DNA of 10,285 nt from a virus (taxonomy: Duplodnaviria > Heunggongvirae > Uroviricota > Caudoviricetes). The translations under genes and the position numbers were made by a program. The notes beneath the pieces are model-generated. The model made no database searches. It was not told where the DNA came from and saw only the letters and a list, made by a program, of their open reading frames with translations. This document shows positions 4,044-10,285 of the stretch, piece after piece. Location: IMG/VR virus record IMGVR_UViG_2531839374_000022; one strand, given 5' to 3'. How positions within the stretch are numbered: the stretch's first letter is position 1; each line of letters begins with the position of its first letter.

Positions 4044-4254
4044 TGGTTGCCCCCCGTTTTCCTGACATTTCGCCACCTTCCAGCAGGAAATGAACGTCAC
4101 GAACGGCGAGATCCAATATCGCGAGTAACGCCTTCAGTTTTTCGTCTCGTGAGGGAGAGTTGCTCACCAGAATGTCATTAATCACTTCTGTCAGTGTGAT
4201 GATCTGGCTTGTGCGTTCGAGGGGATCCATATGCACATCGTAGGTTTTAATCAT
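4036..4254 (-). CDS. Hypothetical small protein (72 aa)
   Basis: Track ORF 4036..4344; preferred start is the ATG at 4254 (MIKTYDVHMDPLE...) with a GGAGGTG Shine-Dalgarno; it overlaps the stop of the upstream ORF (ATGATTAA). Confidence 0.55.
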   Translation of the reverse strand: MIKTYDVHMDPLERTSQIITLTEVINDILVSNSPSRDEKLKALLAILDLAVRDVHFLLEGGEMSGKRGATNE

Positions 4255-4441
4255 GTGCCACCTCCATGCGGATACGACCAGCAAAAAAGCAGACGTGATC
4301 GCGCACCAGAGAACGGCGAGCATCGCGTTCAGACTCGGCAGCAATATGATGAATTTTGGCGGTAATTGTCGGGCAATCGCGGCGAACTGCGGCGATAATC
4401 CAGATAAATTGCGGTTTTTGGGTAGGGGTAGTAGCCAGCAT
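4247..4441 (-). CDS. Small protein (64 aa), first gene after the structured leader; possibly Icd-like (host cell division inhibitor family of P1/P4-like elements)
   Basis: C-terminal 64 codons of track ORF 4247..5002. ATG at 4441 has a strong AAGGAGG Shine-Dalgarno 7 nt upstream. Sequence MLATTPTQKPQFIWIIAAVRR...FFAGRIRMEVAHD. The Icd-like assignment rests on position directly after a C4/CI-like leader and a remembered resemblance; it is not verified. Confidence 0.5.
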   Translation of the reverse strand: MLATTPTQKPQFIWIIAAVRRDCPTITAKIHHIAAESERDARRSLVRDHVCFFAGRIRMEVAHD

Positions 4442-4444
4442 AGC

Positions 4445-4710
4445 GGCAGCCTCCTTTGTGTTTAAGGAGTCACCGCCTGAGTTTCCACGCTCTGAAATGG
4501 CGGTGACGTTAGCAGGGGTGGAAATACCGGACACAAAGGAAACCGGCCTACGCGAACGTAGCCCCACTAACGCCACCATTGATACAGTACGGACTAGGCC
4601 GCTGATTTGATGTGCGTAGTGATCGGACACAAAAAAAGACGCTTTCGGCGTCTGTGTCGCCCTGAGTGTGTTCGGGTTTCCACGCCCGGTTGCTGATTTT
4701 GCAGCAACGC
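4445..4710 (-). ncRNA. Candidate structured leader / antisense-RNA immunity region (P4 CI / P1 C4-like): hairpins, direct repeats and a terminator
   Basis: On the minus strand: hairpin GTTGCTG-CAAAAT-CAGCAAC (plus 4689-4708); direct repeat GCGTGGAAAC at plus 4676-4685 and 4481-4490; a complementary TTTCCAC at plus 4518-4524; direct repeat TTTGTGTCCG at plus 4624-4633 and 4528-4537; UUCG-loop hairpin at plus 4548-4561; 9-bp stem GTCACCGCC/GGCGGTGAC (plus 4469-4477 and 4499-4507) enclosing one repeat copy, immediately upstream of the Shine-Dalgarno at 4449-4454. The family assignment is inference. Confidence 0.35.
4631..4653 (-). terminator. Rho-independent terminator (minus strand)
   Basis: Minus strand reads AGACGC-CGAAA-GCGUCU followed by UUUUUUU; 6-bp GC-rich stem at plus 4637-4642 / 4648-4653, then a run of seven T on the minus strand (plus 4631-4637, the last shared with the stem). 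Confidence 0.55.
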
Positions 4711-4940
4711 TTGGACTATAACAGCTTTTCTCTGCTAGGTGGTCATACCAGATAAAACCGTAACCCTTTAAGAGTTTTTCCTGTGCACGGCTCACCATCT
4801 TTTTGTTGAGGGTAAGCGCCTCGCGTACTGGTAACGGAACTCCGGGCGCTGCGGTATCAATATCAGGTTTTATAAGGTTGTAAGGGTTAACATTTGTTAA
4901 CAGGCCAGCCAGATTAAAGGCTTCTTTCTGGGCGGCAGGT

Positions 4941-5123
4941 TCATTCAGTATCACGGCGCACCTCCACGAACTCATTAACGAATCTCTCCAAAGGCTGAAC
5001 ACATGGCGACTGATAGCCCTCGCGGTAAAAGGTCACTCGGTTATGCTCGACGCGCTCAACGGTCACTACAGCCCCGTGCGAATCCTTGTAACGGCTTCCC
5101 GGCATCGGATTGTGGTTACGCAT
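4941..5123 (-). CDS. Hypothetical small protein (60 aa)
   Basis: Track ORF; ATG preceded by GGAGGT Shine-Dalgarno; start overlaps the stop of the antirepressor-like gene by 8 nt (translational coupling). Confidence 0.5.
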   Translation of the reverse strand: MRNHNPMPGSRYKDSHGAVVTVERVEHNRVTFYREGYQSPCVQPLERFVNEFVEVRRDTE

Positions 5124-5925
5124 GGTTTACCTCCAGACGTTTAGCGAGCCAGCGTTGCGACAGGCGGGTGAGTTCTCCTTTGCGCTGCTCATATTCCATG
5201 CCCATATCAATTAACGTGATATTGGTGCTTTCGAGATAGGCGAGGTGTTCAAGCTGTGCTGCGTTCATGCTGTCCCGTGGTTCGCCAGTAATGCCATTTG
5301 CCTGCGCCCACTGCTTCGCCGTCATGCCACCCAGCACGATACGGGCGATCATGTTGCTCTCGTTGCTGTAGTGGCGCTGCTGCGTCGTTTTGCCCATCTC
5401 GGCACGGGCCATATTCAGCGCATCGCACATTGGCTTAAAGTTGTTTGCGGCACTGAGACGGGCTTTTAGCTGGCGACGATAGCGGGCGGCGATTTCAGGC
5501 ACGCTACGCTGTAATTCTTCCTCGCACTGGATGAAATAACGGCGGATAGCGCGGCCCTGCTCGTTGCGTTCAACCATTGCCACTTCTTTAGCCATATCCA
5601 GCGATAGCAGGTAATCATGCTCTATTTGCTGGCGAGTTTTTGCGCTCGCCCGTTTTGGCGTGCTCAAATTTTCAACACGGATAAAATCGGTTCCGGCAAT
5701 AAAACCGTACTGGTCAATTCGGCCTTTAATCCAGTTAGTAAAGTCGCGGCCCACCCCCAGCGCTTTATGCAACGCCTTAGCGCTCACAATATTGGCTTCA
5801 CGCCCGCCAATGCGTCCGGCAATAACGGGAACAATAGCGGCAAAGTCGTTGCCGTTAATTACTCCCGTGTTAACGTTGGGTTGCGGGGCGGCCCCCGAAC
5901 TGAATCGGCTTTTTTCGATAGTCAT
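5116..5925 (-). CDS. Phage antirepressor-like protein (AntA/AntB N-terminal motif plus KilAC-like region)
   Basis: Track ORF 5116..5985 begins with TTG; preferred start is the ATG at 5925 (MTIEKSRF...) with a GGAG Shine-Dalgarno. Motifs SAKALHKALGVGRDFTNWIKGRIDQYGFIAGTDFI (AntA-type) and LSLDMAKEVAMVERNEQGRAIRRYFIQCEEEL (typical of phage antirepressors). Confidence 0.72.
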   Translation of the reverse strand: MTIEKSRFSSGAAPQPNVNTGVINGNDFAAIVPVIAGRIGGREANIVSAKALHKALGVGRDFTNWIKGRIDQYGFIAGTDFIRVENLSTPKRASAKTRQQIEHDYLLSLDMAKEVAMVERNEQGRAIRRYFIQCEEELQRSVPEIAARYRRQLKARLSAANNFKPMCDALNMARAEMGKTTQQRHYSNESNMIARIVLGGMTAKQWAQANGITGEPRDSMNAAQLEHLAYLESTNITLIDMGMEYEQRKGELTRLSQRWLAKRLEVNHA

Positions 5926-5938
5926 ATTTTCGGCTCCG

Positions 5939-6370
5939 TTATGCGGCGGTGAGATTGTCCGGGTATAGATTGAGAGTGTCGGCAATTTCAGGCTGAGAAA
6001 GTCCCTGATAGCCGCCAGCGTCGGCGTTATGGTTCACAAGCCGAATAACTTTTAGAACGTCACCGCGCCCGGTAAAGCGATAGCGTAAATGTGACCCTAT
6101 CCCGTCGGGGTTCTTTTCGTCTATACGCTCAAGCTGAATATCAAGCCTGCGCTCTAACTCGCTGGCGTAGTTCCTTCCAGACGAAAGGCGGCAATAACGC
6201 AGAATGTCATTTTCTGTCCATCCCTCTATACCAGTACGCAGCATATAGACTCTGGCACGATGCTTTTTCGGTGTGCGCTTTGGTGCTTGAAGGGATTTTG
6301 TAAGGGGCGTAACATCAGATACGCGAATATCTGAATTAGCCGCCTGTAATGGGCGGTTTTTCTTTTCCAT
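5939..6370 (-). CDS. Hypothetical protein (143 aa), translationally coupled to alpA
   Basis: Track ORF; its ATG shares the A of the alpA stop codon (TGATG overlap). Basic N-terminus; no motif recognised. Confidence 0.6.
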   Translation of the reverse strand: MEKKNRPLQAANSDIRVSDVTPLTKSLQAPKRTPKKHRARVYMLRTGIEGWTENDILRYCRLSSGRNYASELERRLDIQLERIDEKNPDGIGSHLRYRFTGRGDVLKVIRLVNHNADAGGYQGLSQPEIADTLNLYPDNLTAA

Positions 6371-6573
6371 CAGGCCACCTTCCCGCGGCGTTCTGCCAGC
6401 CAGTTGTGAATCTCAACCGCATCAAACGCAGTTATTTTTTCTCCCAGCTTTACCGGACGTGGTAGTGAACCGTTTCTTACTTTACGGTCGATGGTGGATA
6501 CACTAACGCCCAGCAATTCAGCCAGGCGGAAGCGTCTGATATAGCCTTTTGTAGGGATAGTGTCGATGTTCAT
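6370..6573 (-). CDS. alpA: AlpA/Vis-family helix-turn-helix regulator (prophage CP4-57-type regulatory protein / excisionase-like)
   Basis: 67 aa; RFRLAELLGVSVSTIDRKVRNGSLPRPVKLGEKITAFDAVEIHNWL fits the AlpA-family helix-turn-helix pattern; GAGG Shine-Dalgarno upstream of the ATG at 6573. Confidence 0.85.
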   Translation of the reverse strand: MNIDTIPTKGYIRRFRLAELLGVSVSTIDRKVRNGSLPRPVKLGEKITAFDAVEIHNWLAERRGKVA

Positions 6574-6612: not shown

Positions 6613-6617
6613 CGGGT
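6613..6617. repeat. IS2 target-site duplication, left copy (CGGGT)
   Basis: CGGGT immediately outside the IS2 end at 6618; identical pentamer at 7949-7953. IS2 is known to make 5-bp duplications. Confidence 0.8.
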
Positions 6618-6628
6618 TGGATTTGCCC

Positions 6629-7534
6629 CTATATTTCCAGACATCTGTTATCACTTAACCCATTACAAGCCCGCTGCCGCAGATATTCCCGTGGCGAGCG
6701 ATAACCCAGCGCACTATGCGGATGCCATTCGTTATAATGTTCGAACGCCTCTGCAAGGTTCTTTGCTGCCGTTAACCCGTCTGGTTTGGGCATGATACTG
6801 ATGTAGTCACGCTTTATCGTTTTCACGAAGCTCTCTGCTATTCCGTTACTCTCCGGACTCCGCACCGCCGTGTTCTTCGGTTCAAGTCCCAACATCCGGG
6901 CGAACTGGCGTGTTTCATTAGCCCGGTAGCATGAACCATTATCCGTCAGCCACTCCACTGGAGACGACGGAAGATCGTTGCCGAAGCGGCGTTCCACCGC
7001 TCCCAGCATGACGTCCTGTACTGTTTCACTGTTGAAGCCGCCGGTAGTCACCGCCCAGTGCAGTGCCTCACGATCACAGCAGTCCAGCGCGAACGTGACA
7101 CGCAGTCTCTCTCCGTTATCACAGCAGAACTCGAACCCGTCAGAGCACCATCGCTGATTGCTTTCTTTCACGGCCACTCTGCCTGTATGTGCCCGTTTCG
7201 ATGGCGGTACAGCAGGTTTTCGCTCAAGCAACAGCGCATTCTGGCGCATGATCCGGTAAACACGTTTGGCATTGATCGCAGGCATACCATCAAGTTCTGC
7301 CTGTCTGCGAAGCAGCGCCCATACCCGACGATAACCATACGTGGGCAGCTCTCCGATAACATGGTGTATACGGAGAAGCACATCCGTATCATCAGTGTGA
7401 CGACTGCGGCGGCCATCCATCCAGTCATCGGTTCGTCTGAGAATGACGTGCAACTGCGCACGCGACACCCGGAGACAACGGCTGACTAAGCTTACTCCCC
7501 ATCCCCGGGCAATAAGGGCGCGTGCGCTATCCAC
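6629..7534 (-). CDS. insD: IS2 transposase OrfB (InsD), 301 aa
   Basis: Track ORF; protein [34 protein letters not shown]... matches IS2 InsD as remembered; GTG start; expressed as the OrfAB fusion by -1 frameshifting. Confidence 0.95.
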
Positions 7535-7857
7535 TTTTTTGCCCGTCCATATTCAACGGCTTCTTTGAGGAGTTCATTTTCCATCGTTTTCTTGCCGAGC
7601 AGGCGCTGGAGTTCTTTAATCTGCTTCATGGCGGCAGCAAGTTCAGAGGCAGGAACAACCTGTTCTCCGGCGGCCACAGCAGTAAGACTTCCTTCCTGGT
7701 ATTGCTTACGCCAGAGAAATAACTGGCTGGCTGCTACACCATGTTGCCGGGCAACGAGGGAGACCGTCATCCCCGGTTCAAAGCTCTGCTGAACAATTGC
7801 GATCTTTTCCTGTGTGGTACGCCGTCTGCGTTTCTCCGGCCCTAAGACATCAATCAT
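7492..7857 (-). CDS. insC: IS2 transposase OrfA (InsC)
   Basis: Track ORF 7492..7902 has an upstream GTG extension; the canonical InsC start [26 protein letters not shown]... is the ATG at 7857. Confidence 0.95.
7534..7541 (-). other. Probable IS2 -1 programmed ribosomal frameshift site (A6G slippery run) in the insC/insD overlap
   Basis: Minus strand reads GGGCAAAAAAGTGG in the InsC/InsD overlap (plus ccactttttt gcccg at about 7531-7545). Frameshifting at an A6G motif is established for IS2/IS3-family elements; the exact position here is by eye. Confidence 0.5.
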
Positions 7858-7948
7858 CTGTACTCCAATGACTAGTCTAAAAACTAGTATTAAGACTATC
7901 ACTTATTTAAGTGATACTGGTTGTCTGGAGATTCAGGGGGCCAGTCTA

Positions 7949-7953
7949 CGGGT
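7949..7953. repeat. IS2 target-site duplication, right copy (CGGGT)
   Basis: CGGGT immediately outside the IS2 end at 7948, identical to 6613-6617. Confidence 0.8.
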
Positions 7954-7962
7954 ATTTAATGG

Positions 7963-8025
7963 CGTGCACGCTCAAAAAGGAATGATCGTATTTTTTACTA
8001 TCGTGATAGTAAAATTTACTATCAC
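7963..8025. promoter_or_regulatory. Operator-like palindrome cluster between the orphan gene and IS2/alpA
   Basis: Perfect 10-bp palindrome GCGTGCACGC (7963-7972); inverted repeat TACTATC-gt-GATAGTA (7996-8011) with a third half-site TACTATCAC (8017-8025). On the plus strand GTGATAGTAAA / TTTACTATCAC can pair and is followed by CTTTTTTT (8026-8033), so the same sequence could act as a plus-strand terminator. Confidence 0.35.
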
Positions 8026-8870
8026 CTTTTTTTCCCTGCCGTGGTGCGTTCTTCCGGTGTTCTGTCTGTGTCGGCTATGAGTTTCTTCAGGTAATCTATG
8101 GATGGCTCATCATAGCCGCCCCCCAAAAGCGCCCAGTGGTTTATTGTGGCGTTCGCCCATGCTTCGTTGGTTTCCTTCCCGTTCTTCCCTTTACACTCTT
8201 CTGGGTAGTGCCGCTTCACATAAATCAACGCCAAGAGGCAAATTTCGCGCTTTTGCCTGTGGCGCTCTCTGTTTCCGTGCTCAACGTTTTTAACATCCTC
8301 ATAAAGAGCTTGTAAGTTTATGCGAGTTTCGGGGCTGTATATGGGCTGGTTTTTGTCCATGCATTCGCCGATATATTCAACCCACGGCCTTGTTATGTAC
8401 AAATCCTCTACGGATATTTCGTGGAAGGCATGTTTTGTATAATCGAGAAAAAAATAATAATTCGCACTTACGTCTAGTTCTCTTTTTCTGTGTGCGGGGC
8501 TGAATATGCGTGCGGGAGTGTCAATAGAATCAAGCCCTGCGATGTCGAGTATATAGGAGGCGTTAACATGCCATAGCCCAAGCACATGGCAATCTATATG
8601 ATTTACAACGCCTGCCTTAAAGCTTTTTTCGTCCTCTACTTCAGTGATTATGTCGGCAAGTAATAAGCAGTCTTCTTTGACGTCTGGGAATAAAGAGCAA
8701 TTGCGGTAAAGACTCGCGATGCTATGTAATGTGCCGTCGTAGCCGCAAAGGTACGCGCTCAAATATATAGATTCTGCCGCCGCCATAATCAAAAGATCAT
8801 CAATATCTATTTCTAATAATTCGGCTGCTCTGTTAAGCCTGAAAAAAGGGGCGGGTGGTAATTTTTTCAT
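8022..8870 (-). CDS. Hypothetical protein (282 aa), AT-rich orphan cargo gene between the integrase and alpA
   Basis: Track ORF; ATG at 8870 preceded by AGGTGA Shine-Dalgarno. The DNA is visibly more AT-rich than the rest of the window (long A/T runs; exact GC not computed). N-terminus FFRLNRAAELLEIDIDDLL is weakly helix-turn-helix-like; no catalytic motif recognised. Confidence 0.65.
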   Translation of the reverse strand: MKKLPPAPFFRLNRAAELLEIDIDDLLIMAAAESIYLSAYLCGYDGTLHSIASLYRNCSLFPDVKEDCLLLADIITEVEDEKSFKAGVVNHIDCHVLGLWHVNASYILDIAGLDSIDTPARIFSPAHRKRELDVSANYYFFLDYTKHAFHEISVEDLYITRPWVEYIGECMDKNQPIYSPETRINLQALYEDVKNVEHGNRERHRQKREICLLALIYVKRHYPEECKGKNGKETNEAWANATINHWALLGGGYDEPSIDYLKKLIADTDRTPEERTTAGKKR

Positions 8871-8965
8871 TGCGTCACCTTTTACGCTGCGCCTTATTTT
8901 GTGATTGAGCCAGGCGGTAAGGCTTCCCGCTTTTCGCCCCGTCGAGCTAGGCTCAATCTATTCAG

Positions 8966-10285
8966 TTAGTTCGCCCTTCTGAGAGGCGTTACGTTGTAGT
9001 CTTTTCCGCTTTCCAGTGCCACCAGCAGATCAGCCCACTGTGCCAGTGCTGCTTTACGCTCATCAAAATACTGATGGCGGTTATAAATCCCCTCTACGCC
9101 CTTAATGCGATGATTGAGGCATCGTTCCGCCACAACAGGATCAACACCCAACGCTGCTAAATGAGTACGTGCGGTGCGTCGAAAGTCGTGAATCGTGAAA
9201 TTAGGCACATCCGGCATTTCGGCGCGAACCTTAGCCAGTGCTACGGGTAAAGTGCTTTCCTGAATATGTGGGATCATTCTGTTTTGCATCTTCCTGGCCG
9301 GAAGCACCCATGCGCTATTACATGAAAAGGTGTGTAGCTCTCTCAACCATTCAACGGCTGGGGAAGGTAGAGGTATATCAATAGGGTCTCCGTTTTTGCT
9401 GCGTTCTTCCGGCAAATGCCATACCGCACCATCTAAATCAAACTCTTCCCATCGTGCGGCGCATAATTCCATTTTGCGGACGCATAACGCTAACAGTAAT
9501 TTGAACGTGATTTCGTTCTGGCGACTGAATCCCTTAGCCGTGCGCATGGCTTTGAATAGCTGGATTAACTCATCGCGGGTTAACCAGCGGTCACGGGCAG
9601 CTTCTTTCCCTCCGGCGTCTGCCACCTCAAAGGCTGAACAGGGGTTAATCTCTAGCGCGTGCCGTTTGATTCCGTAGTCGAATATGCGGCGCGTCCATCT
9701 CAGCACGTCCGTTGCTATGGTCGGCGCTCCACGGTCAACAATACCTTTCAGCATGTCATCGATATGGCGCGGTTTCACGTCCTCTACCTTCATGCTGCCA
9801 ATGCAGGGGTTTATATCTTTGTCGATACGGCGGCGGAGTATATCGGGGTGCTTCCAGCGCGGGAGGATCTGACGCTCAAAGTATTCAGCGGCAAGCTCTG
9901 AAACGCGCATAGCGTTCTTCTCTGCTTCCATCTTCGCCAGTGCTTCGGTTTTGCGCTTCTGCTTCTCTCCTGCAACGTCATAGCCCAGCGCAACGCGAGC
10001 CGATAGCTCTTTGGCTGTCTCTCTGGCCTTTGATAGTGATAGCTCGCTATACGAACCAATTAGCATGGCGCGGGACTTCCCTGCGAGTTTATAGCGGAAT
10101 CTCCATGTGGGGGTTTTGTCGGCTTCACGGTAACGTAGGTATAAACCGTTACCGTCTGCCCGCCCCTCGAATCGCTCTCCGCTCTTAATCCATGCGCGGA
10201 TCTGCATGTCTGTTAGTTTTGGCATTTTGCGAATATCCAAACTTTGAATAGGGGGTGTACCCAAAGCAATGTACCCAAACCTCAT
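8966..10285 (-). CDS. int: Tyrosine-type site-specific integrase, P4-like family (N-terminal arm-binding domain + catalytic domain)
   Basis: Track ORF of 439 aa reaching the window edge. N-terminal GNGLYLRYREADKTPTWRFRYKLAGKSRAMLIGSY matches the P4-type arm-binding (DUF4102-like) pattern; C-terminal HDFRRTARTHLAALG...NHRIKGVEGIYNRHQY carries the R/H-x-x-R/Y catalytic signature. A more typical start is the internal ATG at 10225 (MPKLTDMQIRAWIK...). Confidence 0.9.
   Translation of the reverse strand: MRFGYIALGTPPIQSLDIRKMPKLTDMQIRAWIKSGERFEGRADGNGLYLRYREADKTPTWRFRYKLAGKSRAMLIGSYSELSLSKARETAKELSARVALGYDVAGEKQKRKTEALAKMEAEKNAMRVSELAAEYFERQILPRWKHPDILRRRIDKDINPCIGSMKVEDVKPRHIDDMLKGIVDRGAPTIATDVLRWTRRIFDYGIKRHALEINPCSAFEVADAGGKEAARDRWLTRDELIQLFKAMRTAKGFSRQNEITFKLLLALCVRKMELCAARWEEFDLDGAVWHLPEERSKNGDPIDIPLPSPAVEWLRELHTFSCNSAWVLPARKMQNRMIPHIQESTLPVALAKVRAEMPDVPNFTIHDFRRTARTHLAALGVDPVVAERCLNHRIKGVEGIYNRHQYFDERKAALAQWADLLVALESGKDYNVTPLRRAN

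Follow-up and report, generated by a model that had tools for sequence, protein, structure and literature searches.

The stretch of DNA analysed here, 10,285 nucleotides (nt) of the IMG/VR virus record IMGVR_UViG_2531839374_000022 and hereafter called the window, carries at positions 5116-5925 a gene, antA, whose product bears the name of a phage antirepressor. All genes of the window lie on the minus strand, and antA is the third gene of an alpA-orf143-antA-DUF4222 operon, which runs into a long Eta-like open reading frame (ORF) holding the RNA genes of an immunity system. Judged by its gene order and sequence likeness, the element is an EcCIMP1-like phage-inducible chromosomal island (PICI) with RNA immunity of the P4 type. 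The arrangement around antA is a published and widespread feature of AlpA-type satellites, the label 'antirepressor' is a domain name only, and antA is not wired like the ant gene of P1. The AntA protein is more suggestive of a DNA-binding regulator than of a true antirepressor.

The antA gene and the domains of its product

The gene at 5116-5925 is real, and its product has an AntA domain. The ORF is intact and encodes 269 amino acids (aa), from an ATG at 5925, with the motif GGAG 9 nt upstream of it, to a stop codon at 5116-5118; the product is assigned to AntA by Pfam and to Ant by PHROG. A TTG at 5985 was rejected as the start, being merely the mechanical beginning of the reading frame, as the homologs begin with MTIEKSR at the ATG. 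The same starting methionine is shared by more than 100 full-length homologs (269-280 aa). The homolog search returned more than 900 AntA homologs in total, the best 120 of which show 72-97% identity at a length of 269-280 aa and were found in Escherichia, Enterobacter, Salmonella, Klebsiella, Citrobacter, Pantoea, Serratia and Pectobacterium. Among these 120, nearly all of the homologs with a named source carry the NCBI label 'antA/AntB antirepressor family protein'.

Full-length homologs of 65-77% identity (tblastn) also occur in Edwardsiella, both in a genuine phage, EPP-1 (36580-37431), and at five chromosomal loci, near which no integrase or primase homolog of the window type was detected. 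AntA is therefore not specific to satellites. The gene contexts of the phage homologs in EPP-1, P12620-1 and Rac-SA53 were inspected and proved uninformative.

The N-terminal part of the protein contains an AntA/AntB domain of the Bro network at aa 47-121 (5563-5787), which matches PF08346 (86 bits, with the cut-off at 27; E=1.8e-24). The product also matches PHROG 5817 and 377, both named 'anti-repressor Ant' (E=1e-42 and 3e-30). Of the three families to which the original prediction pointed, namely AntA/AntB, KilAC and Rha, the first is present and the other two are not. A Pfam scan of the antA product at E<=0.01 found no family besides AntA, with Rha (PF09669) and P22_AR_N/C unmatched, and ANT/KilAC (PF03374) gave no match to the isolated C-terminal domain even at E<=1. 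When the profile of this domain was aligned by hhalign with a true AntA+KilAC protein, that of Klebsiella phage P12620-1, the probability was 0.2%; homology between that protein and the antA product is strong at aa 31-140 and then fades. The product is thus AntA-like, as predicted, but not KilAC-like, its C-terminal half being a different shuffled module.

This module is a helical domain (aa 141-269; 5119-5505) for which there is no Pfam model, and it resembles the C-terminal domain of DdrC, a chromosomal DNA-damage protein of Deinococcus, with which the AntA of the satellite is compared by this domain only. The C-terminal domain of Deinococcus radiodurans DdrC (PDB 7qvb, 8u0g) is its closest solved structure. 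PDB sequence searches with the antA protein and with a profile of its close family returned nothing meaningful, and polyubiquitin matches obtained from a heterogeneous profile of 105 sequences were discarded as spurious, being sums of weak repeats. An exhaustive search with aa 141-269 gave 347 representative clusters. Among the listed matches of roughly full length (~190-310 aa) the module is always C-terminal, and in 105 such proteins the N-terminal domains fused to it were pRha in 47, KilA-N in 24, AntA in 22 and Bro-N in 2. As read from these sequences, the distribution of the module is classic Bro-network shuffling. A second homolog search, made with the profile of the C-terminal domain, yielded mostly fragments, and a diverse set was not obtained.

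Inside the AntA domain, comparison of identity among close homologs reveals a replacement hot spot at aa 61-110 (5596-5745). Identity in this segment falls below 55% in 56 of 118 close homologs whose C-terminal domain keeps more than 80%. The segment behaves like a cassette, with at least two alleles among otherwise near-identical proteins, and EcCIMP1 carries the alternative allele. Specificity is probably set by this segment.

The alpA operon and the RNA immunity leader

The operon opens with alpA (6370-6573), a Phage_AlpA/HTH_17 gene by Pfam and a homolog of P4 vis by tblastn. It is followed by orf143 (5939-6370), which matches no family in Pfam, PHROG, NCBIfam or PADLOC, lies directly upstream of antA in most related islands, and is 54-92% identical across them; its product may be a partner of AntA. 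The genes are closely packed, as alpA and orf143 abut, antA begins 13 nt past the end of orf143, the start of the DUF4222 gene (4941-5123) overlaps the antA stop by 8 nt, and the Eta-like ORF overlaps DUF4222. This tight packing places antA in an alpA-led transcription unit, the equivalent of the PLL unit of P4.

The Eta-like ORF (4247-4975; Phage_ASH in Pfam) starts at ATG 4975 or GTG 4954, within the end of the DUF4222 gene, and is 42% identical to the ORF of the P4 eta/kil region (tblastn). Its 3' part is an Icd/Kil-like ORF of 64 aa (4247-4441; NCBIfam NF033153, E=3.7e-20), which is closer to P4 Kil than to Icd of the P1 type. The icd frame is open through C4 and isrK, for 591 nt upstream in the window and 453 nt in P4, and in 17 of 27 related loci it is free of stop codons for at least 300 nt before icd. 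The idea that Phage_ASH is a mere artefact of translated RNA was dropped, since P4 eta is translated and the frame is open in those 17 loci. The NCBI labels for the long ORF vary, reading either 'ash family protein' or, over-long, 'Icd-like protein'.

Within this ORF lies a leader RNA of the a1b1/isrK kind (4632-4721), matched by Rfam c4-a1b1 at 4669-4721 (55 bits) and by isrK at 4632-4708 (72 bits). Its intrinsic terminator, a stem at 4637-4653 followed by seven T residues, is the sole convincing one on the minus strand. The C4/CI-like immunity RNA follows on the same strand (4496-4583; Rfam C4, 80 bits, E=6e-15), and P4 CI aligns with it through covarying stems. The C4 loop UUUCCAC pairs with GUGGAAA at a1 (4677-4683) and at a2 (4482-4488), a complementarity of 7 nt, and UCCUUUGUGU of C4 pairs with ACACAAAGGA at b2 (4452-4461) over 10 nt. 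The a2 and b2 target sites together occupy 4452-4488, and b2 overlies the Shine-Dalgarno sequence of the icd-like ORF. The scores of the AntA, PHROG, Rfam and NF033153 matches all lie well beyond what chance would give.

An extended -10 box, TGtTATAGT (4715-4723), precedes the start of the isrK-like RNA by 7 nt and belongs to an immunity promoter resembling PLE. Its core (TATAGT, 4715-4720, with the variants TATATT and TATGGT) is kept in all nine sequences of an alignment of the region upstream of the a1b1/isrK element, which covered eight related loci and P4. By analogy, this conserved box is the counterpart of the constitutive PLE promoter of P4, and it stands about 400 nt downstream of antA. 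A consensus promoter scan found zero sites and missed even this immunity promoter, and it is uninformative on internal promoters. Downstream of icd come small ORFs and then a P4 alpha-like primase/helicase (1-2466, cut by the window end; 35% identical to P4 alpha), which belongs to the cluster gated by the RNA leader.

The original prediction that antA is encoded upstream of the C4-like leader, with the Icd-like candidate downstream of it, is accurate. Indeed, the immunity promoter and all C4 targets come after antA, and because its operon precedes this constitutive promoter, antA falls outside C4 control. The same prediction had seen in this layout a reminder of the immI c4-icd-ant module of P1, and the resemblance holds for the RNA part. 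As in the immI regions of P1, P7 and D6, the a' and b' loops of C4 face a1b1 and a2b2 targets, with b2 over the icd ribosome-binding site, and the RNA region of D6 and RCS47 is about 70% identical to that of the window. The resemblance does not extend to ant, which in P1 and D6 follows icd and is silenced by C4, whereas antA of the window comes before the immunity promoter; Icd and Ant of D6 gave no matches in the window. The gene order does differ from P1, as had been pointed out, but it is not unusual, being the arrangement of P4 and one published for Gram-negative PICIs. It differs because the C4-like RNA, following the logic of P4, gates the replication genes and not ant.

Sequence identity to E. 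coli islands is uneven. Hundreds of them, such as those of strains 042 and 83972, share 98-99% identity with the icd part (4247-4456), but just 87-92% with the leader and antA. This difference suggests that a mosaic breakpoint lies close to the start codon of icd.

At the other end of the window is a tyrosine integrase gene (8966-10285, cut by the window end). An int-alpA RNA motif (RF02996, 60.6 bits; 8891-8957) lies directly downstream of int and upstream of orf282 (8022-8870), which encodes an orphan protein of 282 aa in the variable slot between int and alpA and shares only 55% identity with its E. coli S43 counterpart. An inverted repeat (7974-8033), with arms of 29 nt and a perfect palindromic core, TGATAGTAAAATTTACTATCA, is found between the orf282 stop and a copy of IS2, and it could be the terminator of orf282, the operator of the native alpA promoter, or both.

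The IS2 copy (6618-7948) is 1331 base pairs (bp) long, 99.9% identical to IS2, in the same orientation as the alpA operon, and bounded on both sides by CGGGT (6613-6617 and 7949-7953), a target duplication of 5 bp. Standing 44 nt ahead of the ATG of alpA, it cuts the operon off from the native upstream sequence, where EcCIMP1 has its helper-responsive promoter. At this distance from alpA, the insertion has probably uncoupled the operon from helper control. Expression of alpA-orf143-antA in this copy has probably been lost or replaced by read-through from the insertion sequence, and IS2 may abolish induction of the island here.

Related satellites and Bro-network proteins

The original prediction took the element for one of the satellite type, and its gene order is indeed that of EcCIMP1 of E. 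coli MP1, a proven PICI. The two share the order int-alpA-orf143-antA-DUF4222-ash/icd-small ORFs-primase (RefSeq annotation), the AntA of EcCIMP1 is 74% identical to that of the window with a nearly identical C-terminal domain, and a C4 RNA is detected in EcCIMP1 by the covariance model. EcCIMP1 differs in its allele at aa 61-110, its integrase and its attachment (att) site, tRNA-Thr, and it has no IS2 upstream of alpA. It is mobilised by the P22-like phage Kapi1, its excision and transduction occurring only with Kapi1, and its alpA promoter is activated by helper induction and not by DNA damage alone (PMC11773190). The 'antirepressor', Ash and the primase are the most conserved genes of EcCIMP1-like elements, and the 'antirepressor' stands on the published map with a role assigned by annotation alone (PMC11773190).

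The arrangement reaches well beyond these two islands. In a synteny scan of one genome per species, which gave 59 loci encoding AntA homologs and is a biased set as it was selected on AntA, antA lies between an integrase gene, usually with alpA and orf143, and a primase gene in about 48 of the 59. Among these syntenic loci are some from Aeromonas and Lonepinella, whose homologs reach 39-44% identity. A C4 RNA is present 0.2-2 kb downstream of antA in 28 of the genome loci, as found with a covariance model, which was used since a single-sequence nhmmer search was too insensitive.

The layout of the window is exactly the one published in 2023 for Gram-negative PICIs, in which an integration zone (Int, AlpA) is followed by a Bro zone and a replication zone, and the Bro zone holds domain-swapping Bro-network proteins, with AntA and Phage_ASH in the Pfam list, and immunity RNAs detected as C4 or isrK (PMC10111431). 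The Bro zone was called dynamic in that work, whereas the position of antA is kept in about 48 of the 59 AntA-selected loci. AntA/AntB, BRO and Rha 'antirepressors', named by annotation, are also listed for PICIs in a 2026 survey of Enterobacter. With the layout generalised in the 2023 work, the anatomy described here was already known.

Like P4, the window has an AlpA/Vis gene, then an Eta-like ORF containing a CI/C4-like RNA with target sites on both sides, a nested Kil/Icd-like ORF, a conserved -10 box and a downstream primase of the alpha type. By tblastn of P4 proteins, vis (35%) finds its counterpart in the window in addition to the eta/kil-region ORF and alpha. The difference lies between vis and eta, where P4 has nothing and the window has orf143, antA and DUF4222. 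No tblastn match to P4 epsilon, orf151, sid, delta or psu was found in the window, which ends within int and the primase gene.

Functional knowledge of AntA-domain proteins comes from AriS of the Listeria phage phi10403S, the sole characterised one that was found in the literature. AriS is likewise a two-domain Bro-network protein with an N-terminal AntA/AntB domain, 259 aa long and annotated as an antirepressor, but it is encoded by a phage and its C-terminal domain is ANT/KilAC, whereas the satellite-encoded protein of the window has an unrelated, DdrC-like one. AriS does not act as an antirepressor; its AntA domain down-regulates genes of its own phage, and its KilAC domain dampens the SOS response (PMC9043618). 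In Gifsy-1, where an ant-like gene is linked to C4/isrK RNAs, AnrP raises the transcription of antQ (PMC4825925).

Possible functions of AntA

Our preferred reading, which we hold tentatively and at slightly less than an even chance, is that AntA is a helper-induced, dimeric, DNA-binding regulator acting on the DNA of the island, of the helper, or of both. By analogy with EcCIMP1, antA would be made only once the helper phage activates the alpA promoter. The N-terminal domain would probably read a target, the DdrC-like helical domain at the C-terminus would dimerise and contact DNA, and the protein would then tune transcription or DNA transactions of the island and/or the helper after activation, with no sequestration of a repressor.

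Several points weigh against this reading. A change of protein partner would account for the hot spot at aa 61-110 as well as a change of DNA site would. The match of the C-terminal domain to DdrC at the level of sequence is weak alone (E=0.12), four-helix bundles are common folds, and the full-length AlphaFold model, made from an alignment of 16 sequences, has a predicted local distance difference test (pLDDT) score of 56 and an unusable N-terminal domain. A search for repeats that could serve as AntA binding sites was unconvincing, save for the palindrome upstream of IS2. Additionally, aa 159-258 in the C-terminal domain match a phage-defence candidate of PADLOC, PDC-S22 (E=1.6e-11).

The family name invites the view that AntA is a true antirepressor, which would bind and inactivate a helper prophage's immunity repressor, in the role that epsilon has in P4, and would let the island wake its helper, for instance once it has been transferred to a new lysogen. 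The PHROG names read the same way, the role is vacant in the window as no epsilon homolog is present, antA belongs to the operon that is expressed first upon activation, the hot spot could follow repressors that vary, and P1-like modules, like Gifsy-1, link an ant-like gene to C4/isrK RNAs. We nevertheless judge this role unlikely, as the protein has no KilAC, P22_AR or other domain of the experimentally proven antirepressors, the AntA-bearing AriS does not behave as one, and the C-terminal domain resembles one for DNA binding and dimerisation. AntA is also conserved, at the 72-97% identity given above, across many genera that must carry different helpers. The biology of EcCIMP1 speaks against it too, in that the alpA promoter fires only after the helper has been induced, and deletion of EcCIMP1 or of alpA alters neither Kapi1 titres nor CI-lux expression. 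The word 'antirepressor' comes to AntA from its family name only, and such a role lacks support and is, all things considered, less probable than that of a DNA-binding regulator.

The likeness to DdrC, which circularises, compacts and protects DNA, raises another role, that of a DNA-handling factor that would bind ends or nicks, or circularise, compact or protect DNA, and so aid replication, circularisation after injection, or packaging. That the closest solved structure belongs to DdrC and that antA and the primase gene are among the most conserved of EcCIMP1-like elements (PMC11773190) are in keeping with it. However, the match is limited to the C-terminal domain and the activity of DdrC needs its own N-terminal domain too, while those of AntA, pRha and KilA-N are generally regarded as sequence-specific regulatory domains. 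AntA is moreover conserved across changes of primase type (31-40% versus 80-93% identity), and is therefore not tied to one replication system, which leaves this role quite improbable in our view. We attach the lowest likelihood, a small one, to AntA as an effector of interference or defence, which would provide superinfection immunity or block competing phages. EcCIMP1 does add superinfection immunity to Kapi1 lysogens with no known defence system found in it, and the PDC-S22 match to the C-terminal domain would agree with such a function; but PDC entries are candidates only and the match may reflect satellites sitting in defence hot spots, the protein has no enzymatic or toxic domain, and antA is syntenic and core-like instead of variable cargo.

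A broader proposal concerns the C-terminal module itself. DdrC has been reported to be without sequence homologs outside Deinococcus. The module shared by AntA and hundreds of 'antirepressors' of the Rha, KilA-N and Bro-N types might be homologous to the DNA-binding, domain-swapping C-terminal domain of DdrC, so that DdrC would be a domesticated phage protein of the Bro network, and the AntA of the satellite would be a dimeric factor binding lesions, ends or the topology of helper or satellite DNA, and no antirepressor. We regard this proposal as doubtful and would not expect the whole of it to hold.

Hundreds of enterobacterial genomes carry antA under the label 'antirepressor', and the label invites the idea of satellites that wake their helper prophages. 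Knowing what AntA does would fill a gap in the understanding of how AlpA-type satellites take over after induction, and it might also explain the superinfection immunity conferred by EcCIMP1. The structural link of a shuffled C-terminal module to DdrC, as the comparison of folds suggests it, is unexpected, and this possible link offers a lead of its own on where a Deinococcus repair protein came from.
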